The notes: generated by a model not told the origin, from the sequence alone. A DNA stretch of 64,000 bases from Candidatus Woesearchaeota archaeon (GCA_002867475.1 PKTL01000069.1:9382-73381), one strand, 5' to 3'; counted from the stretch's first letter, positions 16,186 through 52,151 are shown. A program made the numbers and translations.

Positions 16186-16297
16186 TAGCGGGGAGAGGAT
16201 TTGAACCTCCGACCTCCGGGTTTCTTGATCTCTGATCGAGAATTCGACCTTGGAGATATATGAGCCCGACGGGCACTCCTAGCTGCCCTACCCCGCT
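16186..16297 (-). tRNA. tRNA-iMet(CAT) with 37-nt intron (16222-16258) at 37/38
   Basis: AGCGGGG acceptor, GGG/CCC anticodon stem, CAT at 16260-16262, GGTTCAAATCC T arm. Confidence 0.92.
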
Positions 16298-39788: not shown

Positions 39789-39877
39789 ATTATTGCCTCC
39801 CAGTTTTTTGTAAATAGTATTAAGATGGAACAAGATATTAATTTTTACCGGAACTAAGCGGAACTACCGGTGAGAAA

Positions 39878-40576
39878 TCAGTTTTTTAAGGTTAATCTGT
39901 TACTCATCCCGACCTTTTCTTTTGAGATGATGTCTTTTCTTACCATTGACTCAATGTTTCTTGAAACACTGCTTTTTGGAAGGTTTGTCTTTTCTTCTAT
40001 ATATTTTTGAGTTAATGGTTTTTTGCTCTTTTTTAGAATATCATAAATTATCTTTTGCCTTTCAGTTAGAAAAGCTGGGTCTATTCTTTTTGTTTTCTTT
40101 TTCTTATGAAAAAAGAAGAAATATGCTGCAAGTAAAATCAAGATTATAATTGATAAGAAAATAGAGATTAAGTAATTATTGTTTTCAAGCCTGTTTATTG
40201 AGTATTGAACTAGGATAACCAAACTTTCATCTCTTCCAGTACCAATAACTGTTATTGAATCATCTTGATCTATTCTTGAGAGATGTCTTGTTTTTAGATA
40301 ATTGATGTCCAAATCCTTTGGCATGTGAAGCCTGTATATGAACTCATCAAACGTTTCATCCATTGTCATATTGAAAAGCCAATATTTGCCTTTTTTAGAA
40401 GTGTAATTAGGGTTTGGTTGTTCAGTTAATAAATTTGGATAATTCGAGATTCCTTCAATTATCACATTGCCATCATCTTCTAAGAATATATCAATATCTG
40501 CATAATATCCAGCAAATACAGAGTTTATCATAAGAATAAATACTGTTAAACATAAGAATATGTTCTTAGATCTCAT
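39878..40576 (-). CDS. Membrane-anchored protein with C-terminal winged HTH
   Basis: Signal peptide, TM, LTQ..I...TNLPKSSVSR....GMSN. Confidence 0.8.
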   Translation of the reverse strand: MRSKNIFLCLTVFILMINSVFAGYYADIDIFLEDDGNVIIEGISNYPNLLTEQPNPNYTSKKGKYWLFNMTMDETFDEFIYRLHMPKDLDINYLKTRHLSRIDQDDSITVIGTGRDESLVILVQYSINRLENNNYLISIFLSIIILILLAAYFFFFHKKKKTKRIDPAFLTERQKIIYDILKKSKKPLTQKYIEEKTNLPKSSVSRNIESMVRKDIISKEKVGMSNRLTLKN

Positions 40577-40733
40577 AATTATACTAAGTTCTGGTTAAAT
40601 AAAAAGCTTTTGTCTTTGAAAACTTTTTTATAATATTGTTTTCATATAATCATTTATGGATAGCTATTATTTAAATCTTTCGATTATTTTGTCTTTCATT
40701 AGTAGTAACATAAAAGACTTGATTTCGAATTGT

Positions 40734-40753
40734 AACTAACATCGCTGTTACAT
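40734..40753 (-). repeat. Site S1, collapsed attC-like mini-site
   Basis: AACTAAC-ATCGCT-GTTACAT. Confidence 0.7.
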
Positions 40754-40917
40754 ACCCCGAAACAAAGTTTATGATTGACTTTAGTCCAATCAATAAACGA
40801 CTTGAGAGTGCAACGAGGTCGACTGAAGGGAGAAGTTTTAGAGCCCGAAAAAGAGTTAGTTTTTCAAAGTAGTGACAAACCGTAAGATTTATATTTAATT
40901 TAATCGTGCTTTTTATT

Positions 40918-41283
40918 ATGTCAAAAAATAACGAAAAAAATTTATCAACTATAATGTATCTTGCAGAACAACTTGGTATTAATCTTGATGATAAAAGAAC
41001 TGCTATTGCTACACCTGAAGAAATGAGCACAGCAAGAATGTATGATGGTTCTTTAGAAGCTAGAGTAATTCCTAATTCTAGACCTGCTGTTGAAATTGAA
41101 ACTCCAAGAGGTCCAGGAATTTGGATAGAATTAGTTGACCACACTAGAGATTTAGCTCCAGAAGGAGCAATATATCAAATAAGAACTTACGTACCTAAAG
41201 AAGATCATAAAGAAGGTTTAACTGGAGATGTTTATTCTGTTTATGTTGGGAAAACTGGAATTATGCTTGATTTGCCAAAATAA
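40918..41283 (+). CDS. Hypothetical protein (cassette A cargo)
   Basis: ORF filling the cassette; TTTATA box at about 40888. Confidence 0.7.
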   Translation: MSKNNEKNLSTIMYLAEQLGINLDDKRTAIATPEEMSTARMYDGSLEARVIPNSRPAVEIETPRGPGIWIELVDHTRDLAPEGAIYQIRTYVPKEDHKEGLTGDVYSVYVGKTGIMLDLPK

Positions 41284-41321
41284 GTTGATAATTCTGCATT
41301 GAAATAGGGCTCTAAAATTGT

Positions 41322-41341
41322 ATGTAACATCGCTGTTAAAT
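41322..41341 (-). repeat. Site S2, collapsed attC-like mini-site
   Basis: ATGTAAC-ATCGCT-GTTAAAT. Confidence 0.7.
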
Positions 41342-41497
41342 ACTCCGAGTCCGAGTTTAACTTGAACTTTAGTTCTAAGATTAAACGAAACGAGAGCGCA
41401 ACGGGACAAGGAGCGACTAGCGACGCAGAGTAAATTAGAGTCTTATTCTTCAAAAGAGTGAAACGATGCATTGAAGCTAACTTAAAAGGGCAATTTT

Positions 41498-41800
41498 TTA
41501 TTCAAATTTGATATTTTCATATTTTTTAAGATGTTTAGAACTATGCTTATATACAACATCATGATGTTCATAATCAACAAAAAATACGGTTCCGTCATCT
41601 CCAAAAAATAAAATTACATAAGAATTATTCACATGAACACGTTTAAATTTCTTTAAATCTTATGAAAGATTTTTATAATGATATAAATTATCTGAATTTA
41701 GAATTTCATCTCTTTTATTAAGAATATTTTGAAGCTCTTTTCCTTTAAGCTTCTTAAGAGCTTTCTTGAAAAGATTGCCATATTTTCTTTTTCTCATCAT
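41498..41800 (-). pseudogene. relE: RelE-family toxin with premature TAA at 41660-41662 (cassette B)
   Basis: Manual translation MMRKRKY...HYKNLS*DLKKFKRVHV...YVILF...DYEHHD.VY; similar to 42512-42775. Confidence 0.8.
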
Positions 41801-42045
41801 AAATTAGCTCTATCTTTAAGTTCCTTTTCAAAGATATCAGCTTCTTCGTCTGATAAAAAAGAATTAGCATCTTTACTATTCAATCTTTCTAAATATTCTT
41901 CTCTTACTTTGAAATTATCAAAGATTTTTTCACGTGCAGCTTCACGCATGAATTCTTGAACATTCAAAAAACCATGATTTTTAGCATATTCTTTAGCTTG
42001 TTCTAAAAAATCTTCAGATAATCTTAGATTTATTTGCGTAGTCAT
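41797..42045 (-). CDS. RHH antitoxin (cassette B)
   Basis: MTTQINLRL..QEFMREAAREK; overlaps the toxin start. Confidence 0.8.
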   Translation of the reverse strand: MTTQINLRLSEDFLEQAKEYAKNHGFLNVQEFMREAAREKIFDNFKVREEYLERLNSKDANSFLSDEEADIFEKELKDRANL

Positions 42046-42133
42046 AATATTATATGATATTACATAATATTTAAAACTATCGCTTAATCTTAAAAAATTG
42101 CCCATTTTCAAAAAAAAGACTCTAATTTATTGT

Positions 42134-42159
42134 ATTTAACATCAGGATCGTTGTTAGTC
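42134..42159 (-). repeat. Site S3, short attC-like site
   Basis: ATTTAAC-ATCAGGATCGTT-GTTAGTC. Confidence 0.65.
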
Positions 42160-42287
42160 AGTGAGTCTGCAAGACGAACGAAGGAGCGAATAGCGACTGA
42201 CAGTATGACGCAGAGAGCCGAACGGGCTTAAACGTAAAATTTATATATGATTAAATAACATTAAATAATATTATTTAAGGTGATAAA

Positions 42288-42515
42288 ATGAGTATAAAAT
42301 CTTTTAACGTCGATGAAGACACATATGGGAAATTTTCCTCTTATTGTAAAGAAAATGGGATAAGTATGAGTAAACAAGTGGAAACCTTCATGAAATCAAT
42401 GATTGAAGAAGATCCACAAGTGAAACAAGAATACCTAGAAAAATTAGAAAGAATAAGAAAAGGAAAATTCGTAAAAGTAAACAACTTTGCTGAGAGATAT
42501 GGATTAAAAGAATGA
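42288..42515 (+). CDS. RHH antitoxin (cassette C)
   Basis: KSFNVD...F..YC...G..MSKQVE; ATGA overlap with the toxin. Confidence 0.8.
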   Translation: MSIKSFNVDEDTYGKFSSYCKENGISMSKQVETFMKSMIEEDPQVKQEYLEKLERIRKGKFVKVNNFAERYGLKE

Positions 42516-42775
42516 GTTATGAACTTGAAATCCATGAAGATTTAGATAGAACTTTTTCTAAACTTTCAAAGAAAAATAAGAAACAATTAGAAATAATCTT
42601 CAAAAAAGTTGATGAAATTCTAAAAAATCCATATCATTACAAACCTCTTCGTGGAGACATGAAAGGTTCAAGAAGAGTTCATATCGATAAACACTTCGTT
42701 CTAATATATGAAATTCTTAAAGAATCAAAAGTTGTTCGATTACTAGACTATAATCATCACGACAAAGTTTACTAG
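42512..42775 (+). CDS. relE: RelE/YafQ-family toxin (cassette C)
   Basis: NP.HYKPLRGDMKG.RRVHI...VLIY...HHDKVY. Confidence 0.9.
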   Translation: MSYELEIHEDLDRTFSKLSKKNKKQLEIIFKKVDEILKNPYHYKPLRGDMKGSRRVHIDKHFVLIYEILKESKVVRLLDYNHHDKVY

Positions 42776-42797
42776 TTCGGCTCTTGAGTAATATTGT

Positions 42798-42886
42798 AAC
42801 TAACATCGCTGTTAAATGAGGTTTTCTGATAAGAAAATCTGGAAGAGCGCCGAGCCGAGGCGCGAATCATTTAATCGCTGTTAGAC
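42798..42886 (-). repeat. Site S4, full attC-like hairpin (89 bp)
   Basis: TAAC-A-TC-GC..TTAAATGA...TCATTTAA..GC-T-GTTA with two internal sub-hairpins. Confidence 0.85.
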
Positions 42887-43007
42887 GACCCGAACCATAC
42901 AAAGTGAAGGTGAGAGCGCAGCGTGGCAAGAAAATCTATGATTTTCGCAGAGTTCTTTTGTTTGCCCGTACATAAATTTAAATAGTTACTTTGAATTAAT
43001 AATTATA

Positions 43008-43850
43008 ATGGTTTCACTTAATAAATATCTTAATATTCTTCAAAGAGGAATTGATAACTTTATTAGTTTTGAATCTAATTCAATTTTAGAGAAAAAACAA
43101 TTCCAAGCTAATTTTAATAGTGATGAAATTGAAAAAATCATCGAAGTAATTGAAAATCAAATCAAAATCATAAAAAAAGCGATTAAGCATGCAGATTTTT
43201 ATCGAATTCATCTTGAAGTTATGAATAATAAAGAACTTGTTGCATACATGGAAATTAACAAGAGAGTTCCATATTTTGAGTTCCGTTATAATCAAGTTTT
43301 TTCTCAACAAAAAAAAGTGATGGAGAAAAGATTAAAAGAATTAAGTAAAGAACAATCTAAAGCAATCAGTTCATGGAATTCAATAATAGGAATCTTTAAT
43401 ATATTCTGCAACGAATCATTACATTTACTAAAAAAACAAAGAAGATATTTAGAAAAATATGAAAAAAATCCTGCAAAATATACAAAGAAAAGTTTGGGAA
43501 ATAAAATGAGGAAATTTCTTAAAAATGACTTTGAAGGATTATTAAAAATTGAGGAAAAATTATTTTTAACTGTTCTTTATTCAAGTAAAAAAGAATCAGA
43601 GAATTTGAGAGAATTTGGTAAGGAAATTGAAAAATTATTACATTTAGAGGAATTCAAAATGTATCCTCATATCCCTGGTTTAGTCCTAAACATTTTTCCT
43701 GAGGCAGGTTTATCAGATATAGCATCTGCACCATTTCATGCAGCAGGATTTTTTCTTAGTATAATTCAAAGAACCAACAAATATTACAAAGAGTGGAACG
43801 AATTCATTAAAGATAATGCTTTAAAGAGCAAACAAAAGAATTTTGTCTAA
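43008..43850 (+). CDS. Hypothetical helical protein (cassette D cargo)
   Basis: 280-aa ORF whose TAA stop lies in the GTCTAAC core. Confidence 0.75.
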   Translation: MVSLNKYLNILQRGIDNFISFESNSILEKKQFQANFNSDEIEKIIEVIENQIKIIKKAIKHADFYRIHLEVMNNKELVAYMEINKRVPYFEFRYNQVFSQQKKVMEKRLKELSKEQSKAISSWNSIIGIFNIFCNESLHLLKKQRRYLEKYEKNPAKYTKKSLGNKMRKFLKNDFEGLLKIEEKLFLTVLYSSKKESENLREFGKEIEKLLHLEEFKMYPHIPGLVLNIFPEAGLSDIASAPFHAAGFFLSIIQRTNKYYKEWNEFIKDNALKSKQKNFV

Positions 43851-43933
43851 CATCGCGATTAAGAGAAGTTATTTTGCAAAAATAATTTGGATGAGGGCGC
43901 TGCAAGGCCCGAATCTCTTAATCGCTGTTACAT
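43845..43933 (-). repeat. Site S5, full attC-like hairpin (89 bp)
   Basis: TAAC-A-TC-GCGATTAAGAGA...TCTCTTAATCGC-T-GTTA. Confidence 0.88.
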
Positions 43934-44043
43934 ACCCCGAAACAAAGCTTAACTTGTCGAAGACTAAGATTAAGCGACTTGAGAGTGCAACGAGGTCGAG
44001 AATTTATGAAATAAATTCGAAGAAGTTTTGTTTTTAGCGCCGT

Positions 44044-44298
44044 TTACAATTTCTTGTAAACCTTGCTTCGATGATCTGCATGAATGACATATATAATCAA
44101 TTTATTATCTTCAATGTCAGCGATTACTCTGTAATCTCCAACTCTTAATTTATATTCAGAACGACTTGATAATTTTACAAAGTAATGATGAGGGTTTTCT
44201 TTTGTTTCTTGAAGCTTCTTAAAAATTCTTTGAGAAATGTCTTTAGGTAATTTTTCTAAATATGTTGATACTTTTTCATCGAAAACTAATTCATACAT
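44044..44298 (-). CDS. relE: RelE/ParE-family toxin (cassette E)
   Basis: ENP....KL....YKLRVGDYRVI...HR..VY. Confidence 0.92.
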   Translation of the reverse strand: MYELVFDEKVSTYLEKLPKDISQRIFKKLQETKENPHHYFVKLSSRSEYKLRVGDYRVIADIEDNKLIIYVIHADHRSKVYKKL

Positions 44299-44299
44299 T

Positions 44300-44539
44300 T
44301 TACAATCCTAATCTTTTAGACATTTCTGCTTCAGAAACTAAATTTCCTTGTTTGATACGTGCTCTTGCTGCTTCAATAGCTTCAATAGTTTCTTTACTAA
44401 GCTCAGGTTCATCTTTAACATGTTTTACAATATGAACTAGTTTAGTAATCACTTCATCATAACTTTCATTACGATATTCTCTAAATTTATCAAGTTCGGA
44501 CTTTGTCCCGTCATGAATTTTAATAGTTGTCGCAGTCAT
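44300..44539 (-). CDS. Antitoxin (cassette E)
   Basis: TTIKI...K..L...ESYDEVI..L; directly upstream of relE. Confidence 0.8.
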   Translation of the reverse strand: MTATTIKIHDGTKSELDKFREYRNESYDEVITKLVHIVKHVKDEPELSKETIEAIEAARARIKQGNLVSEAEMSKRLGL

Positions 44540-44626
44540 TTTATATCACCTTTGAGTTTACTTCAGTATACCATAGTAAACTAAAGTATATAAATGTATG
44601 CTTTAAGGCGCTAAAAACAAAATTGT

Positions 44627-44688
44627 ATGTAACTTCGGGTTTTGACGAAGTTTTTCGTCAGAAAAATTTTGTTTAAACCCTGTTACGC
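44627..44688 (-). repeat. Site S6, attC-like hairpin (62 bp)
   Basis: GTAAC-T-TC-GGGTTT...AAACCC-T-GTTAC. Confidence 0.8.
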
Positions 44689-44969
44689 GAACCGAAAGCC
44701 TTTTGCTGAGGGAAGTTTTTGCTCGTGCTAATCTTAGTCAGACATACAATAATATATTATTATACTATGTATAATATATTATGTATGGTCTAGACTATCA
44801 AGATTAGTAGCACAGGAGTCAAACCTCCTTAGCACACAAAAAGTCTTAGTTCGAGCTCCACAGGGCTTGAATTTCGTAAAAAACTTTTTACGATGACTAT
44901 TTGCTTCTGAAATCGAAGCAGGCAAAAGCTATGCTGCTATTTTGTGCTAGAGCAAAAATTTTGCGTAAC
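44682..44969. other. Gene-less, highly structured cassette F
   Basis: No ORF in the track; nested inverted repeats across its length. Confidence 0.75.
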
Positions 44970-45056
44970 ATCGCGATTAAGAGAAGTTATTTTGGAACAA
45001 AATAATTTGGATGGAAAAGTCTGCAAGACTTTGGAATCTCTTAATCGCTGTTAGTT
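44963..45056 (-). repeat. Site S7, full attC-like hairpin (94 bp), close relative of S5
   Basis: Same outer stem as S5; different inner hairpin (AAAGTCTGCAAGACTTT). Confidence 0.88.
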
Positions 45057-45137
45057 TCTTCTGATAAGAACGAGGAATAACTGCAAGTGGTTTTTGACGA
45101 AGTCAAAAAATTCCGAAGAGTAATTTTTAGCCCCCAT

Positions 45138-45557
45138 TCAATATCTTTTAGTAATATAAAGAGTAGCTTTAAAATTATCAATATCTCCAGTTGAAAGAAA
45201 TCTACTTTCTAAACTTGGACCTAAGTATAAATTAGAAGTTTTATCAGCAGTAAAATTAGGCACTGGCATAATTCCTGCACACCCCATATACCCATCTTTT
45301 AGCTTTAATAATAAATCTTCTTCAGGTTCATCAAATTCAACCCCTGTTTGACTTAACATAAAATCAACTGGCGTAGAATAATTTTCTGCAAGTGAATATA
45401 ATCCTCTTCCAACAATAAAAATTGGACCTGTCATCACGATATGTTGAGGATTAAAAGGCATATCCTCTCCAGACATCATTCTTTGTGAGATTTCATTTCT
45501 CATAGATTCAATTGCAGCTTCAACAAAACCCATATGAATTGCGTTATTATCTTTCAT
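45138..45557 (-). CDS. Hypothetical protein (cassette G cargo)
   Basis: 139-aa ORF filling the cassette. Confidence 0.7.
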   Translation of the reverse strand: MKDNNAIHMGFVEAAIESMRNEISQRMMSGEDMPFNPQHIVMTGPIFIVGRGLYSLAENYSTPVDFMLSQTGVEFDEPEEDLLLKLKDGYMGCAGIMPVPNFTADKTSNLYLGPSLESRFLSTGDIDNFKATLYITKRY

Positions 45558-45622
45558 AAAAAGTGTAACTACTAAATAGTTTATATACTTTTCTTTTTTT
45601 AAAGGGGGCTAAAAATTATTGT

Positions 45623-45708
45623 AACTAACATCGGAATTTAACGAAGTCGCCGAAGGCGATTTGGGAAAAATGCGAGCCGAGCATTTTTCCGTTAAATTCC
45701 TGTTAGCC
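45623..45708 (-). repeat. Site S8, full attC-like hairpin (86 bp)
   Basis: CTAAC-A-TC-GGAATTTAACG...CGTTAAATTCC-T-GTTAG. Confidence 0.88.
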
Positions 45709-45941
45709 GACCCGCAGCTACGAGCGATGTTTTGAGCGGAGTGGCAAGGGCAAGGTTTAACTTGCTTGCAAGATTAAACCGCAGAGTTTTCTTACTGCCG
45801 AGAACTAGATAGGTGCCGTAGTTTTAACTTACTTTAGAAAAATCCTATACATAACGAGTGAAACGAGACAAATTAGTTCGCTAGAACTGGGGGCGTTCTT
45901 AAAAAAAATATTTTATGTTTAATAATTCATGAATTATTTTA

Positions 45942-47402
45942 TTAACATTTAATTGTGAATTTAATATTTATTGTTGAAGGGATATCTATTTCTATAAAAT
46001 CTGCTCGTAAAATTCCATTTTCTTCTATTCGAAATTGTGCATTAATTATATCATCATACTTATTTTGACCTAATTCAATACCACATTCTTTATCATCGCA
46101 CCATGAAGTATCTCTTTGAATATTTGTTGTGGTGTTTAAAGCATTTAATTCCATAAAACATTTTGATAAATTGTATTTATTTTCTTCCAATCTATATATG
46201 TATTCCCTATAATGTCCTACTGAATAATTTAATTTATTATTAATATAAATGCTTACTTTACAAGTATTATTTTCACAAGTTGTTAAATCATCATATTCAT
46301 ATCTTTTATTTCTATCTTCTTTAACAAAACCTTTAAGGATTAATTTTGAAATATTTTGATCTTTAATTTTAAATTTATTAAATTTTAATAGAATCATACC
46401 TTTATTTTCATTTAGCAAAATTTTTTCAAATCCGAATCTATCGAAAGAATCTTTTAAATTATTGTTTGAAATATCATAAAACCCATCAATTATTTTATTA
46501 TTTTTATCTGTTAATAATTCAAATTTATCATCATGATCCGCACTAGTATCTATATTATATTTTCCATAATTTATAGGTATTAGAGGTATAGTACTTGTCA
46601 TTAATCCAAAATTATTTTTGATTTTAATGGGGACTTCAATATTTCTATAAATATATTCACTATTGCCATGGTCAATATAATAATTTACTAATTTTTCATC
46701 ACCATATGAAAAAAATGGAATAGATATTATTGTTGATATTATACCTAATAAAATTATAATAGGAATTGCATAAATAATAAATTTTTTAGTATTAAAATTT
46801 TTTGCTAATTTTTCATTTTTATCCTTTTTTAGAAATTCCTTGATTGATTTATCAAAATTATTAAATATTGATTTGAAATAAACATTATAAATAATAAAAC
46901 AAATCATCAAAAGCATTAAAAAGAGTATAAATAATATGATTCCCTCAGCCAAAAATTCATGTAAATAAGGAATTAATGCAATAATAATAATATTTTTGAT
47001 GAGAATTATTAGAAAAAATAATTGGATAAATAATAAAGATATAAACCAATTTCCTAAATCTTTTTTTGAACATTTATGTTTGTTACGATAAATTATAAAA
47101 AAAATAAAAATAAAACCTATTCCTGCAAAAATAATCCCTAATTGTGTGATTTCCCAAGACTTAGAAATGTCAAAATCTAAATTAAACCTATTGCTAAAAT
47201 AAGTTCCTAAAAAGAAAGTAAATAAAGCAGTTATAAATAAAAAAAGCCAAATAACTATTAAATCAATTACAGAATTAGAATTATTCAATTTGAATTTTCC
47301 TTTATTTTGGAATTTTGACCATAGTAAAAAAGTTAATAATATTGAAACTACTAAATACCCAGGCATATTAACCAAAAGATCAAATAGATTTTCCCAACCC
47401 AT
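45942..47402 (-). CDS. Multi-TM membrane protein with soluble C-terminal domain (cassette H)
   Basis: 486 aa, very AT-rich, several TM segments. Confidence 0.7.
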   Translation of the reverse strand: MGWENLFDLLVNMPGYLVVSILLTFLLWSKFQNKGKFKLNNSNSVIDLIVIWLFLFITALFTFFLGTYFSNRFNLDFDISKSWEITQLGIIFAGIGFIFIFFIIYRNKHKCSKKDLGNWFISLLFIQLFFLIILIKNIIIIALIPYLHEFLAEGIILFILFLMLLMICFIIYNVYFKSIFNNFDKSIKEFLKKDKNEKLAKNFNTKKFIIYAIPIIILLGIISTIISIPFFSYGDEKLVNYYIDHGNSEYIYRNIEVPIKIKNNFGLMTSTIPLIPINYGKYNIDTSADHDDKFELLTDKNNKIIDGFYDISNNNLKDSFDRFGFEKILLNENKGMILLKFNKFKIKDQNISKLILKGFVKEDRNKRYEYDDLTTCENNTCKVSIYINNKLNYSVGHYREYIYRLEENKYNLSKCFMELNALNTTTNIQRDTSWCDDKECGIELGQNKYDDIINAQFRIEENGILRADFIEIDIPSTINIKFTIKC

Positions 47403-47539
47403 AAAATTATTTATTAAATCTTTTATTTAAAAAGCTTTCTTGTGAGTTTGCAAAGATTGGGATAAATTTCTCAATTATTTATCCCAAGACAGCGTTTAAA
47501 AAAGAAAGAGTTATATAATTAAATAATAAATTGAAATAG

Positions 47540-48205
47540 ATGTCAGAAAAATTAACAGGTTCAGAAATTGAAAAAAAAGTATATGAACACATTATAAAAA
47601 GTGTTGGTATGGGTTATACTACTGACTTTAATCCTTTAAATTTATCTACAGAAGGGATTGCTGATTGTCTTGGTTTATCAATGGAAGAAGTTGAAGAAGC
47701 AATCAACAAACTAAAAGGTGAAGGTGAATCAACCAATATTGAGAGAATAGAATCTGTGAAACCTAAATTTGAAATTTGGTTACCTAAAACTAAAAAAGGT
47801 AAAGAAGTTTTAGATGAATTATGTAATTCAGGCGTTGCTATTAAAGGTTCAATGCAATGGTTTTACACTTTTTTACTTTTGGCAGCTTCATATATTTTCA
47901 CATTTGAAAAACCATACTTAGCAAATGTGTTAGAATTAAAATCATTTAATGAGTATTTTGTATGGGCTGTTATTTTTACAGGGATTTCATCATACTTTGG
48001 AAGTTATTTGGCTCATAAATGGCATCAAATAAATTATGAAATGGAAAGAATAAAAGGCGGCAAATATTACATTTATGCATTTATATTATTGATTTCAGGA
48101 ATAATATATAGTTGGATGAAAGAAATAGATGTTGCACTTATCATTACAAGTGTAGGAACAATAGCAAATTTGGTATTAGTAATATATCAAATCATAAAAA
48201 AATAA
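47540..48205 (+). CDS. HTH-like N-terminus plus TM protein (cassette H)
   Basis: STEGIADCLGLSMEEVEEAI segment followed by TMs. Confidence 0.65.
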   Translation: MSEKLTGSEIEKKVYEHIIKSVGMGYTTDFNPLNLSTEGIADCLGLSMEEVEEAINKLKGEGESTNIERIESVKPKFEIWLPKTKKGKEVLDELCNSGVAIKGSMQWFYTFLLLAASYIFTFEKPYLANVLELKSFNEYFVWAVIFTGISSYFGSYLAHKWHQINYEMERIKGGKYYIYAFILLISGIIYSWMKEIDVALIITSVGTIANLVLVIYQIIKK

Positions 48206-48206
48206 A

Positions 48207-48917
48207 ATGGCAAAGAAAAAATCATATGAAGAAGGGAGTATTGCAGATTTTGCAGCTCAGGGATTAAAAAATATTAAGAAATTATCAGGAAGTTCTTTAA
48301 TGAGTGAAAAATTAGTTGGTTTAAGCACATTTTTATTTTCATTGGTATTTACCTTTAGTTTCGGTAAATGGTTAATACAACCCGAACAGTTATATGAAAT
48401 AAGTTCAGTAGTTATTTTAATTTTAGGATTAATGATTGGTCTAGGATTATCTTCAGGTTATTCATTTATATTGTTAGCAATTTCAGACTTTGCAAAAGAT
48501 AAAATTCAAAGTTTAAGATTAGGAATTGTTTTCTTATTTATTTCAATTCCTTTGTCAATAGCGGGATTAGCATTAAATTCAAACTTTTTCATAGCTTCTA
48601 GTTGGATATTAATTGTTGTTCAACTTGCATTAATCTTGTTAAGTTTCTTTTTTAGCTTTTCATCTCAGAGCATTCCAGATATTAAAGTAAATGCTTCAGG
48701 TATATGGAAATCTATAGGTAGAGCTGGGTCAATTGCAAGTATATTAGGTTTAGTATTGGCTGTTTTAGTAATACTCGCACCACAATATTTCGGACAAACA
48801 TTATACCAATGTATTGATGGAACTGTTCAAAAAAGTTTAGAAGCATGTCCAAATATAAAAGAATATTTAGTCACATTTGCTAAAGAACAAGGATATAATT
48901 TAACTAATATTAACTAA
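48207..48917 (+). CDS. Membrane protein (cassette H)
   Basis: Multi-TM ORF. Confidence 0.65.
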   Translation: MAKKKSYEEGSIADFAAQGLKNIKKLSGSSLMSEKLVGLSTFLFSLVFTFSFGKWLIQPEQLYEISSVVILILGLMIGLGLSSGYSFILLAISDFAKDKIQSLRLGIVFLFISIPLSIAGLALNSNFFIASSWILIVVQLALILLSFFFSFSSQSIPDIKVNASGIWKSIGRAGSIASILGLVLAVLVILAPQYFGQTLYQCIDGTVQKSLEACPNIKEYLVTFAKEQGYNLTNIN

Positions 48918-48944
48918 ATTAAAAAATATGGGGAAAAAATAAAA

Positions 48945-49250
48945 ATGGAAAATAAAGAAATATTTATTCAAGCTATAAATGAAAAAAAGAAAGTGAAAGT
49001 GAAAATCAATACTGATGAAAAAGGAATTATTATAAGAGATTGTATTCCTTTTGATTTCGGAACTGGTAAATTGCCAGGAATCAGATATCATTTTCTCGAT
49101 TTAACTAGTCCTGATGGACCTCACAATTTATCTGTTTTACCTAATAAATTATTAGAAATTGAAATTTTAGATGAAACATTTAATCCTGCTGATTACATTA
49201 AATGGAAACCTAATTGGAAATTAGCAAGAGATTGGGGAGAATTTTCTTAG
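48945..49250 (+). CDS. Hypothetical protein, possibly WYL-like fold (cassette H)
   Basis: AI..KK.V.....R.C.P.DFG....I.IL.ETF.P pattern resembles stand-alone WYL-like proteins. Confidence 0.55.
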   Translation: MENKEIFIQAINEKKKVKVKINTDEKGIIIRDCIPFDFGTGKLPGIRYHFLDLTSPDGPHNLSVLPNKLLEIEILDETFNPADYIKWKPNWKLARDWGEFS

Positions 49251-49496
49251 ATTTTAAGAACGCCCCTTTTTATTTTCTTTTTTTTCTAAAGTAAGTTAAA
49301 ATTTGGGTGGAGTGCGAGGTTTTCTCGTGCGTAACCGTTAAACATTTGTTAGATACAATCTTTCCAATGTATATTATACGAAGTTTTTTCTAAGCCTTCT
49401 CCTCTATGAGAAGAGCTTTCCCTTTTAACGAAGGCACCTACCTTTTTAGATTCCCGGGCACGTTTTGTCGTCTACAAAAGGCAGTAAGAAAATTTT

Positions 49497-49540
49497 GGCT
49501 AACATCTTTTAGGTGAATTTTTATGAGAATAAAAGATGTC
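49497..49540 (-). other. Candidate attI-like primary recombination site
   Basis: Minus strand CACCTAAAAGAT-GTTAGCC; last core before the integrase, with no closing GTTA box. Confidence 0.6.
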
Positions 49541-49596
49541 TTTTATTTTTAAGTTAAAACCCAGTTTTAGGTTTTGATATGTTTTTTGCTAAAGAC

Positions 49597-49797
49597 TTAT
49601 TTGTCTTTAGCGTGGCTGAGAAGCTCTTCATGGAGAAGCTCAAGCTTTTCAATTGTTCTTATGTGCATGTCTTTCATGACTGCGAACTGATATTTTTTAC
49701 TATTGTCTTTTTTTAGTAGCCAGTTCAACTTATTTGATAATCCTATTATTAGATCTTCATATTGTGTTAAGAGTTCGATTGCTTGTTTTTTATTCAT
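49597..49797 (-). CDS. Small hypothetical protein pointing into the array
   Basis: 66 aa, GAGGTGAT RBS at 49803-49810. Confidence 0.6.
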   Translation of the reverse strand: MNKKQAIELLTQYEDLIIGLSNKLNWLLKKDNSKKYQFAVMKDMHIRTIEKLELLHEELLSHAKDK

Positions 49798-49824
49798 TTT
49801 ATATCACCTCGATATGGCTAAATT

Positions 49825-49950
49825 CACTGGACAAGACAGCTCATGTAACCTTCGATTATGAAATAATCGATTGGTTCAATGAATGTTGTTGCAGTCCTGC
49901 TTTGTTATCGAGGTGAATTGAATAAAAATAGAGGCAGTGGACACTGGACA
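49825..49950. repeat. CA(C/G)TGGACA repeats, left cluster (49825, 49935, 49942)
   Basis: Same motif as the 51974-52042 cluster. Confidence 0.6.
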
Positions 49951-50014
49951 TAGTCAAATGAGATTTAAAAATCATAGATAACATTTAAATAATATGAGTG
50001 GCTATAAATTGAAT

Positions 50015-50233
50015 ATGACAAAATACACGGCATTTATACAAAAAGATGAAGATATGTATGTTGCTACATGTGTAGAACTTGGCACGGTTAGTCAAGGATA
50101 CACGGTTGAAGAAGCATTAGATAATCTAAAAGAAGCAACCGAACTTTACCTTGAAGAAATGCCAGGAGAAGAAGTTTCTGATTATTCTTTTACTACCACT
50201 TTTGAAGTTGGTGGTAAAAGTGTTAAAGCTTAA
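50015..50233 (+). CDS. hicB: HicB-family antitoxin
   Basis: YVA.C.EL...SQG.T.EEAL.NL.EA.ELYLE. Confidence 0.9.
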   Translation: MTKYTAFIQKDEDMYVATCVELGTVSQGYTVEEALDNLKEATELYLEEMPGEEVSDYSFTTTFEVGGKSVKA

Positions 50234-50450
50234 AAAAATTTCTGGAAAAAACTGTGTTAAACTAATTTGTAATAAGTTCAGTTTTAAATATGTTAGGCAA
50301 TCTGGAAGTCATATAATTCTTAAAAAAATAAGTGGAGATACCACAATTACTTGTGTTGTTCCTAATCATTCTGAAATTAAAATTAACACTCTGAAAGGAT
50401 TATTAAAACAAGCAAAAATTAGACAAGAGGATTTTATAAAATATCAATAG
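50220..50450 (+). CDS. hicA: HicA-family toxin
   Basis: RQSGSH....VVPNH.EI...TL...LKQA; GTG start after GGTGG. Confidence 0.88.
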   Translation: MLKLKKISGKNCVKLICNKFSFKYVRQSGSHIILKKISGDTTITCVVPNHSEIKINTLKGLLKQAKIRQEDFIKYQ

Positions 50451-50460
50451 AGGTGATAAA

Positions 50461-51237
50461 ATGAATGTGTCAAAAATAATATTTGATAAATTGTTTATTC
50501 AAGGTTGTAGTATGAAAACCATAACTGCTTATGAATTGCAGCTAGAAAAGTTTCTTGAGTGGGTTGATAAGCCTCCATTAAAAGTCAAACAAAAAGATAT
50601 TGAAGAGTATACCAAATATCTAAGAAGAAATGATTATGCCCATTCAAGTATTAGGCTTTCCCTTAATGCTATCAAATATTATTTTGTGAAAATAATGAAG
50701 AGAAGGTTTGAGATTTCCATGCCTAAAAAACATGAGAAACACACAGGCGTTTGTGATAGAAATGAGATTGTTGAAGCAATTGATAATTTAAGAAATCCAA
50801 AGCACAAATTACTTCTTGCATTGCTATATGGTTCTGGTGTTCGTGTTAGTGAAGCTGTAAAGATTAGGCATGATGATATTTTTGATGATTATGCAGTTAT
50901 CAGGCAAGGTAAAGGAAGTAAAGATAGAAAGATAATAGTTTCTGATATTTTTCTAGAATTATATGAACCTTTTAAAAAAAGAAAAGGTTTTGTTTTTAAT
51001 GGTAGAAATTCTCATTTGACTGTTAGAAGTGTTCAAGAGATAGTTAAAAAAGCGTTTAAGGATAGACATGTTCATCCTCATATGTTAAGAGCAAGTTTTG
51101 CAACGCACCTTTACGAGTCAAGTGTTGATAAGCATAAGATCCAAAGATTACTTGGTCATAAGGATGTGAGAACTGTTGAAGTTTATACTAAGTATTCAAA
51201 GTTCGATCCAGAAGTTAAAAGCCCTTTAGATATTTAA
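50461..51237 (+). CDS. Tyrosine recombinase, integron-integrase-like but without the IntI-specific insertion
   Basis: LLYGSGVRVSE, GKGSKDR, HMLRASFATH, LLGH, VYT; C-terminal KSPLD. Confidence 0.93.
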   Translation: MNVSKIIFDKLFIQGCSMKTITAYELQLEKFLEWVDKPPLKVKQKDIEEYTKYLRRNDYAHSSIRLSLNAIKYYFVKIMKRRFEISMPKKHEKHTGVCDRNEIVEAIDNLRNPKHKLLLALLYGSGVRVSEAVKIRHDDIFDDYAVIRQGKGSKDRKIIVSDIFLELYEPFKKRKGFVFNGRNSHLTVRSVQEIVKKAFKDRHVHPHMLRASFATHLYESSVDKHKIQRLLGHKDVRTVEVYTKYSKFDPEVKSPLDI

Positions 51238-52042: not shown

Positions 52043-52151
52043 TTCACGCTTAAGCCTTTTAAACTGTTTTTCCCATAAATGAAATTATGATTAAAAATTT
52101 CAATCAATTATTAAAGCAAATTTTATATATGAGGCGATAAAAATGAAAACT

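Follow-up and report, generated by a model that had tools for sequence, protein, structure and literature searches.

The cassettes of an integron-like array in an archaeal genome begin with a structured module of several small hairpins, and we propose, at odds that we put at roughly one in two, that this module is a single-stranded-DNA structural scaffold within an extended cassette recombination site. The array spans positions 40737 to ~49510 of a 64,000-nucleotide stretch from Candidatus Woesearchaeota archaeon (GCA_002867475.1, PKTL01000069.1:9382-73381), referred to here as the window, and carries nine TAAC(A/T)TC...TGTTA junctions between its units, which include cassettes A to H. In what follows, covariation establishes the structure of the module; also established are its constant position, the asymmetry between strands, the link to a recombinase gene and the spread across domains.

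The grammar of the module was derived from 49 distinct copies. A 9-nt R' arm (GTTA plus 5 nt) comes first, followed in order by CCC-GA, a hairpin termed P2, GAGA, a mini-hairpin of the form G-Y-GCA-R-C, G-NGG, a second hairpin termed P3, and AG. P2 is symmetric, fills the interval between CCCGA and GAGAG, and occurs in set classes such as GC-GAA-GC, GCC-GAA-GGC, C-GA-NN-GAA-N'N'-GA-G and NN-GNA-NN-GNA-N'N'-GNA-N'N'. An earlier sequence-only reading of the window had described a shared module in most cassettes; this stands for A, B, D and E, four of the eight, which carry the full grammar, and for H in degenerate form, but not for the remaining three. The same reading had called A and E identical outside the hairpin, and we found 97% identity both between 40741-40771 and 43921-43951 and between 40794-40822 and 43971-43999, with the differences in the hairpin stem. 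The core, GAGAGYGCARCG, has four exact copies in the window (at 40804, 41392, 42912 and 43981), all on the + strand and all inside the array, and the 1.67-Mb genome holds no exact copy beyond these. With up to two mismatches allowed, the core matched 10 times in the window against 3.19 expected, a number reached in 0 of 100 shuffles.

To assess the fold beyond the window, we used a covariance model (R1) built from six seeds, which recovered 73 modules at E ≤ 0.01 from 48 of 79 sources totaling 619 kb. In the resulting alignment, 89.1% of 846 cells were paired, compared with 65.0% after shuffling, and double-sided changes were present at all 13 pairs. The covariation score was 0.507 versus 0.163 for shuffled alignments (0 of 500 reached the observed value) and dropped to 0.007-0.094 when pairing partners were slid. 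The Y:R pair of the mini-hairpin was C-G in 51 modules, U-A in 20 and unpaired in none. The module is a genuine structured element that covaries. A hand parse of the 49 distinct modules, independent of the covariance-model alignment, agrees with it: Y:R was T-A in 11, C-G in 36 and C·A in 2 (cassette B being one of these two exceptions), and the inner two pairs of P2 were paired in 92.6% of cases versus 62.1% after shuffling (0 of 2,000). Support for P3 comes from the 73-module alignment; the automatic P3 finder selects for pairing by construction, and its shuffle control was not used. Cassette D is the only window copy matched by the covariance model (26.5 bits, E = 0.00039).

In cassettes A, B and E, the module contains a hairpin with two extrahelical bases. 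The positions and sequences originally given for these three hairpins were correct, and the variant in H is placed as listed in Table 1. The long bulged hairpin extends the distal end of P2 in A, B and E of the window and in one further genome, and that of P3 in window H and at two additional loci. We aligned four copies, those of A, B and E and one from another genome. All 52 cells of this four-sequence alignment, three of whose members come from the window, were in standard pairs, 7 of 14 pairs were altered on both sides, and the covariation score of 0.667 (0.219 shuffled; 0.000-0.083 with partners slid) exceeded all 500 shuffles, consistent with the covariation that had been claimed. The bulged A adjoining the basal GTTTAA/TTAAAC stem was kept in all seven copies inspected by eye. 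The idea that two extrahelical bases are a general feature of the module, in contrast, did not survive: across 401 genomes of the same order, the two-bulge pattern gave 6 matches in 4 genomes and was confirmed in cassette modules of two only, the source genome and one other (G031), and most modules have a mini-hairpin of 7-17 nt in its place. One further match (genome G083) was dropped, as it apparently lies within coding sequence.

The position of the module relative to the crossover follows from the cassette borders. In seven of the eight window cassettes, the bases after GTTA complement those before TAAC at the cassette's own end, and they do not complement the junction in which they sit. 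From this complementarity, the crossover falls at G|TT, as it does in integrons, and the module belongs to the cassette on its right. The R' arm measures exactly 9 nt in 40 of 48 modules. Of 21 cassettes across loci with automatically assigned arms, 11 paired R'' with R' over all nine positions, either by 9 matches or by 8 and one G·T wobble. Every cargo is also flanked by a cassette-specific inverted repeat of 12-18 bp, termed the clamp here, with AG at its start and TT at its end forming an A-T pair and a G·T wobble. The purine run noticed earlier at the end of the module is present but is not single-stranded filler, since part of it closes P3 and its last AG pairs with the TT before R'' in every cassette inspected by eye. 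A machine search for clamps was noisy in this AT-rich DNA; the 31 of its 209 candidates that had AG.../...TT flanks were carried on, so that AG/TT in this set is selected by rule. Another genome holds a cassette with 80% identical cargo and two compensatory clamp changes (AGCGCC/GGCGCT versus AGTGTC/GACACT), which argues that the clamp is under selection for pairing. A canonical attC fold is bounded by R'' and R'; here, a covarying module and a clamp lie beyond R' and are continuous with the R helix. The module, outside the R''-L''...L'-R' hairpin and always tied to a cassette junction, is no free-standing repeat. Contigs assembled from runs X1 to X3 over 39800-50600 contained no joined form at a cassette border and showed two joints, 46480/46807 and 49834/49905, neither at a junction; these are contigs and have no bearing on excision.

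When the joined ends of five window cassettes were folded in silico with RNA and with DNA parameters, all five gave a 12-18-bp clamp and then an 8-10-bp R helix, separated by at most 2-3 unpaired bases on the R'' strand, with the attC stems beyond. The module formed local stems on the strand opposite R'', between clamp and R helix. With P1 (CC/GG) and P3 anchored at their ends, the joined cassette as modeled is a four-way junction without linker bases. We propose that the joined, single-stranded top strand of an excised circular cassette would adopt this fold. Its first arm would be the R helix, 9 bp between the R'' arm NNNNNTAAC and the R' arm GTTANNNNN, which would contain the crossover G|TT and run into the attC hairpin. 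The second, P1, would close GA-P2-GAGA-mini-hairpin-G, the third would be P3, and the fourth would be the clamp, with AG and the left repeat pairing with the right repeat and TT. The module would then form a three-hairpin bulge on one strand at the exact end of the recombinase-bound R box, where it could fix the geometry of this box, keep cargo from pairing with it and mark the strand and the crossover side for the XerA-like recombinase of the array, much as extrahelical bases and a variable terminal structure do in canonical attC sites. The molecule that folds would accordingly be DNA, the recombinase or a partner would read it, and recombination would be affected. Among the three roles that the sequence-only reading had offered, an accessory recognition element fits best with the fixed 9-nt distance from GTTA, the specificity for one strand and the conservation across domains. 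A wider claim, which we hold only tentatively, is that DPANN archaea, the Candidate Phyla Radiation (CPR) and other bacteria share an integron-like system in which the excised top strand of a cassette would fold into a purpose-built four-way DNA junction, with an R helix, two mini-hairpin arms rich in GNA triloops and tandem G·A, and a cassette-specific clamp. A short XerA-like recombinase would read it, so that strand and enzyme lineage would both differ from those of integrons and the accessory DNA fold would be new. In the boldest version, the module itself would be catalytic, or would be cut by a junction-specific nuclease that resolves the single-strand exchange.

The loops of the module are mostly those of known DNA mini-hairpins. 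GNA triloops cap 51 of 73 P2 and 38 of 73 P3 hairpins in the covariance-model set, and tandem G·A flanks the short stems. GCGAAGC, GCGCAGC, GCGTAGC and CCGAAGG occur as tips of P2, core and P3, matching the motif GCGNAGC or GCGNNAGC, in which two G-C pairs close a GNA or GNNA loop. A predominance of GNA triloops next to tandem G·A marks stable DNA mini-hairpins and is seen on the top strand only: the bottom-strand equivalents are pyrimidine mismatches. The G·T wobble at the clamp start (AG/TT) likewise exists only on the top strand. DNA mini-hairpins of the GCGNAGC and GCGNNAGC types melt near 80°C and the RNA form r(GCGAAAGC) melts at 39°C, according to PMC13037366; the natural sites named there and in PMC3201870 are single-strand initiation sites and single-stranded promoters.

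A structured RNA made from each cassette start, be it a small RNA, a processing or insulating element, or a self-cleaving three-way-junction ribozyme, would also be expected to covary strongly, to form a compact junction with conserved purine-rich joining strands and to be conserved across domains. G·U exceeds A·C in the stems (33 G·T versus 15 A·C, as counted in DNA), and a T-rich stretch often follows the tail. This T-run is not constant, however, and 15 A·C among 775 stem cells is high for a functional RNA. The GNA triloops, typical of DNA, stand where RNA would usually have GNRA or UNCG tetraloops, the mini-hairpin loses much of its stability as RNA, and the sub-hairpins of attC, part of a DNA recombination site, have the same loops as the modules. 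The sequence upstream can be anything between a 14-nt mini site and a 90-nt attC, which leaves no fixed promoter position. Rfam, searched with the whole window at gathering scores, returned one tRNA only; with 40000-46500 at E values up to 10, it returned nine weak matches of small nucleolar RNA, microRNA and small RNA types, all below gathering, and none to a module as such. A search of sequencing runs listed none of RNA that contained the sequence; it listed one of DNA, which may be from the source sample, and two more runs from that study. An RNA role, the least favored of the three originally offered, is therefore improbable in our view.

The same chemistry raises the question of a priming signal, in which the mini-hairpins would keep single-stranded-DNA-binding protein (SSB) off the excised single-stranded circle and mark a primase start for the complementary strand. 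There is real precedent for such hairpins: PMC13037366 describes GCGAAAGC in the complementary-strand origin of phage G4, where primase acts, and CCGAAGG in ssiA, to which the RepB' primase binds, and notes that SSB binds such mini-hairpins poorly. CCGAAGG, GCGAAGC and GCGCAGC are all present in modules, and the fold is specific to the top strand. Yet priming would not need a fixed spacing of 9 nt from the crossover, and the loci inspected showed no linked primase gene, although no systematic search was made. Archaeal and bacterial primases are unrelated, whereas identical module sequence is found in contigs titled as archaea and as bacteria. We regard priming as an unlikely explanation of the module; it is compatible with the scaffold role and does not exclude it.

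The cross-domain distribution is broad. The core motif was found in 172 of the 401 genomes of the order (five unpublished genomes are among the 172), and a reversed control pattern was rare. When 40 distinct core hits were read in context, ~11 were chance matches in coding sequence or tRNA, and most others followed GTTA-N5-CCCGA. Loci were counted by core-motif match, and modules without the core, such as the types in C, F and G, are therefore under-sampled. In the species-representative public genome collection, the pattern GTTA-N5-CCCGA-N5-20-GAGAGYGCARCG-NGG matched at least 127 stretches; as it specifies 23 bases, we estimate that ~1 chance match would be expected. A viral contig collection gave one match. 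Archaeal record titles among the matches listed were Woesearchaeota, Pacearchaeota and Nanoarchaeota, and bacterial ones included Kerfeld-, Magasanik-, Uhr-, Gracili-, Peregrini- and Saccharibacteria, Omnitrophota, Desulfobacteria, Bacillota, Ignavibacteria and others. These assignments rest on depositors' titles, and many of the contigs are short and binned, so some labels may be wrong; the carriers also include contigs of 78-823 kb. Bacterial copies have the same layout of attC and module as archaeal ones.

This distribution argues against host-specific roles, since promoters, terminators and primases differ among hosts and the type of recombinase is shared. One such role would be that of promoter, leader or terminator for the cargo gene: by eye, the purine run and the T/A-rich stretch could resemble an archaeal B recognition element (BRE)/TATA pair or an oligo-T terminator. 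The module always lies on the R' side and on the + strand, for cargo of either orientation (+ in A, C and D; - in B, E and G), which speaks against a cargo leader; its purine tail is base-paired in the fold, archaea and bacteria have different promoters, and the covariation of the hairpins would be left unexplained. We judge cargo regulation very improbable. We attach similarly little weight to the view that the modules are functionless by-products, either decayed or duplicated pieces of attC or small palindromes spread by recombination between cassettes. The core AGTGCAACG does also occur inside some full attC hairpins, a hairpin type can sit at P2 in one module and at P3 in another, turnover is faster for modules than for cargo, and the mini attC sites show that deletions happen. 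Order, spacing and junction sequences are, however, kept across the public contigs and order genomes counted above, every stem has compensatory changes, and decay would not leave 89% pairing.

One cassette start (GTTATACGC... module ...TTCAAAAAATATTTTTCG...) is near-identical over the first 100 nt past the module in L073, L104, L105, L108, L112, L136 and L164; titles carrying it are Kerfeldbacteria, Omnitrophota, Desulfobacteraceae, Chlorobium, Ignavibacteria, Chitinispirillaceae and a DPANN genome. In L073 (10168-12708), the cargo is a 747-aa open reading frame (ORF) whose first residues look UvrA-like by eye alone.

A gene for a XerA-like tyrosine recombinase lies downstream of the last junction, in the orientation of the array (Table 1). 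Its best profile was archaeal XerA NF040815 (171.8 bits, below the cutoff of 220); the NCBIfam integron integrase profile TIGR02249 scored 132.1 bits in two stretches, against a cutoff of 265. Among solved structures, IntI4 covers only residues 17-170 of the protein and XerA (4a8e) covers 11-246, and the additional domain specific to IntI is lacking. Homologs with 34-42% identity adjoin arrays in 12 fetched loci, and the loci listed with a short XerA-like recombinase are L011, L014, L015, L017, L018, L021, L024, L055, L058, L080, L084, L094 and L228. In all loci whose coordinates were checked (the window, L011, L015 and L228), the gene is at the R' end in the orientation of the array. A contig titled Kerfeldbacteria has a split match of 30% identity to the recombinase 3 kb from a module.

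Several results weigh against the scaffold. Cassettes C, F and G, three of the eight in the window, carry reduced or different modules. Homologous cargo in other genomes comes with modules that do not align, which indicates that no single module sequence is required; where cargo was 80% identical, neither the module nor attC could be aligned with its window counterpart. The pair counts of the 73-module alignment are biased towards the structure, because the alignment was fitted to that of the model, and P1 consists of two near-invariant pairs only, its third pair being unpaired in 51 of 71 modules. Folding energies are not unusually stable (mean z of -0.32 with RNA and -0.74 with DNA parameters; n = 49), the bottom strand has similar values (-0.41 and -0.92), and only 35-37 of the 49 modules fold more stably on the top strand. 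As the energy models were used without bonuses for GNA mini-hairpin loops, the case rests on covariation and on loop chemistry outside these models. The automatic parse failed to show R''/R' complementarity in 10 of its 21 cassettes, with a parsing error behind at least one of these failures. Three junctions have no L boxes, and the binding of two recombinase monomers there is not explained. Finally, the structured strand is the conventional top strand, whereas in canonical integrons the bottom strand is folded and recombined.

Table 1. Features of the cassette array and recombinase gene, in window coordinates
Feature	Coordinates	Strand	Details
R' arm, cassette A	40747..40755	+	9/9 complementary to R'' arm at its own far end (41320-41328)
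Module, cassette A	40756..40835	+	CCC 40756-58; GA 40759-60; P2 40761-40803, with two-bulge tip 40767-40798
Core of module A, GAGAGTGCAACG	40804-15	+	Mini-hairpin 40808-14; followed by AGG 40816-18
P3 of module A	40819-33	+	Followed by AG 40834-35, start of clamp helix
Left clamp repeat, cassette A	40834..40846	+	Pairs with 41307-41319
Right clamp repeat, end of cassette A	41307..41338	+	Clamp 41307-19; R'' arm 41320-28; 6-nt loop of mini attC; GTTA of junction 2
R' arm and module, cassette B	41335..41430	+	P2 two-bulge hairpin 41355-41386; core 41392-41403; P3; GCAGAG
Leader, cassette C	42153..42223	+	Divergent: small hairpins of GCA and GAA type, GCAGAG end, no exact core
R' arm and module, cassette D	42880..42950	+	P2 42894-42911; core 42912-42923; P3 42927-42948
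Full attC-like hairpin, junction 5	43848..43930	+	TAACATC...TGTTA; two inner sub-hairpins; GCA loops
R' arm and module, cassette E	43927..44025	+	P2 two-bulge hairpin 43947-43975; core 43981-43992; P3 44000-44018; tail GAAGAAG
Leader, cassette F	44682..44714	+	Reduced: ACC-GA, one hairpin, GA-GGG-AAG
Leader, cassette G	45050..45120	+	Second module type: GGAAT / AACTGCAAGTGG / GAA-loop hairpin / ATTCC / GAAGAG
R' arm and degenerate module, cassette H	45702..45786	+	Single-bulge hairpin 45755-45779 at the P3 position
Clamp repeat pairs	40834-40846/41307-41319; 41429-41442/42118-42131; 42949-42965/43828-43844		
Clamp repeat pairs	44024-44041/44607-44624; 45119-45135/45604-45620; 45785-45799/49480-49494		
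XerA-like tyrosine recombinase, 258 aa	50461..51237	+	Downstream of last junction, same orientation as array

The cargo units of the array are small genes on both strands, among them ParE-like, RHH and other toxin-antitoxin pairs. Five junctions are hairpins of 55-95 nt with two inner sub-hairpins each, three are mini junctions of 14-32 nt, and the last lacks GTTA. The mini junctions (40737-40750, 41325-41338 and 42137-42156) consist of R'' and R' around a loop of 6-12 nt without L boxes, and such forms are also present in another genome (L016); they may be active sites or deletion scars. Full attC hairpins (e.g., with centers at 43883-43890, 45003-45010 and 45664-45671, and in loci L011-L016) share a conserved (A)TTTGGR between their two sub-hairpins. 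GAAG precedes the first sub-hairpin and, together with (A)TTTGGR, echoes the cargo flanks ...GAAG, clamp, TTG.... The module type of cassette G is also present in locus L011. Window positions 45089-45121, within module G, are the sole stretch in common with another contig of run X1, both flanks diverging, which places this hairpin type in a different cassette context in that sample.

At the far end, the last junction (49500-49545) has R'' and a hairpin followed by GTC TTTT in place of GTTA, with no module downstream; it may be the array boundary or an attI-like side, beside HicAB (49994-50450) and the recombinase. Cassette H (45702-49510) is 3.8 kb long and contains four ORFs as well as three pairs of inverted repeats nested within one another (45786/49480, 45822/49281 and 45889/49254). 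Loci from five other genomes (L020, L039, L063, L065 and L094) share its left end (GTTAGCCGACCCG...TTTTCTTACTGCCGA...), so that H may represent a conserved platform and not a cassette of the ordinary kind. The window is AT-rich (~31% G+C), with a Cdc6/Orc1 gene at 52143 and a tRNA gene at 16186-16297 (-) in which a 39-nt intron follows the anticodon loop, a feature that supports an archaeal origin.

Integrons provide the textbook example of recombination at a site folded from a single DNA strand, and that site is taken to end at the R boxes. If the scaffold reading is true, a large, unstudied branch of cassette systems, from DPANN to CPR and other bacteria, uses extra DNA architecture, which would offer a handle on the choice of strand and orientation, on cassette movement across domains and on cassette arrays run by short Xer-like enzymes. 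The sequence and structure model of the module also finds cassette starts, which searches for attC alone leave unmarked.

Archaeal integron arrays of this general kind are already in print (PMC9668308); in the portion of that article's text available to us and in literature searches we found neither module nor clamp, the supplements, which may show such sites, lying outside this scope. Some resemblances to other systems are of motif or chemistry. The phage G4 origin, RSF1010 ssiA and the phage N4 early promoters also carry mini-hairpins with GNA loops of the GCGNAGC and CCGAAGG types on single-stranded DNA (PMC13037366), but those sites recruit primase or RNA polymerase away from any recombination crossover, and the likeness is one of motif only. 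Hammerhead-type three-way-junction ribozymes are likewise compact, with short helices, conserved purine-rich joining strands and a cross-domain distribution; a hammerhead-like core was rejected, as the joining strands GA, GAGA and G are unlike it, no Rfam ribozyme matched and the triloops are of DNA type. Also discarded were a likeness to the 8-17 DNAzyme, whose stems and loops differ, and an archaeal bulge-helix-bulge processing site at the clamp, which lacks opposed 3-nt bulges.

Other parallels are sites folded from one DNA strand. The attP(+) site of CTX phage, on which XerC/XerD act, is a forked hairpin formed by the single-stranded phage DNA. It resembles the present system in that a Xer-type tyrosine recombinase acts on a folded strand; it differs in being a single imperfect hairpin that mimics dif, with no cassette array, accessory hairpin domain or clamp. 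Canonical integrons share several features with the array. The window array has tandem cassettes with attC hairpins, AAC/GTT R boxes and hybrid G|TT junctions, and it shares with them a crossover that leaves TTRRRY at the start of the next cassette, toxin-antitoxin cargo, and a hairpin with unpaired bases between R and L boxes whose structure is conserved while its sequence varies. The array works like an integron but lacks three integron features: the additional domain of IntI, the usual location of the integrase gene, and R' as the limit of the site. An intI gene beside attI at the array start, divergent transcription and a mostly uniform cargo orientation are features of integrons; here, the recombinase gene is oriented like the array and adjoins its R' end, cargo runs in both directions and the top strand is the structured one. 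Canonical attC ends at R', whereas the site described here continues beyond the R box into a 45-100-nt domain of three hairpins and a cassette-specific clamp of 12-18 bp.

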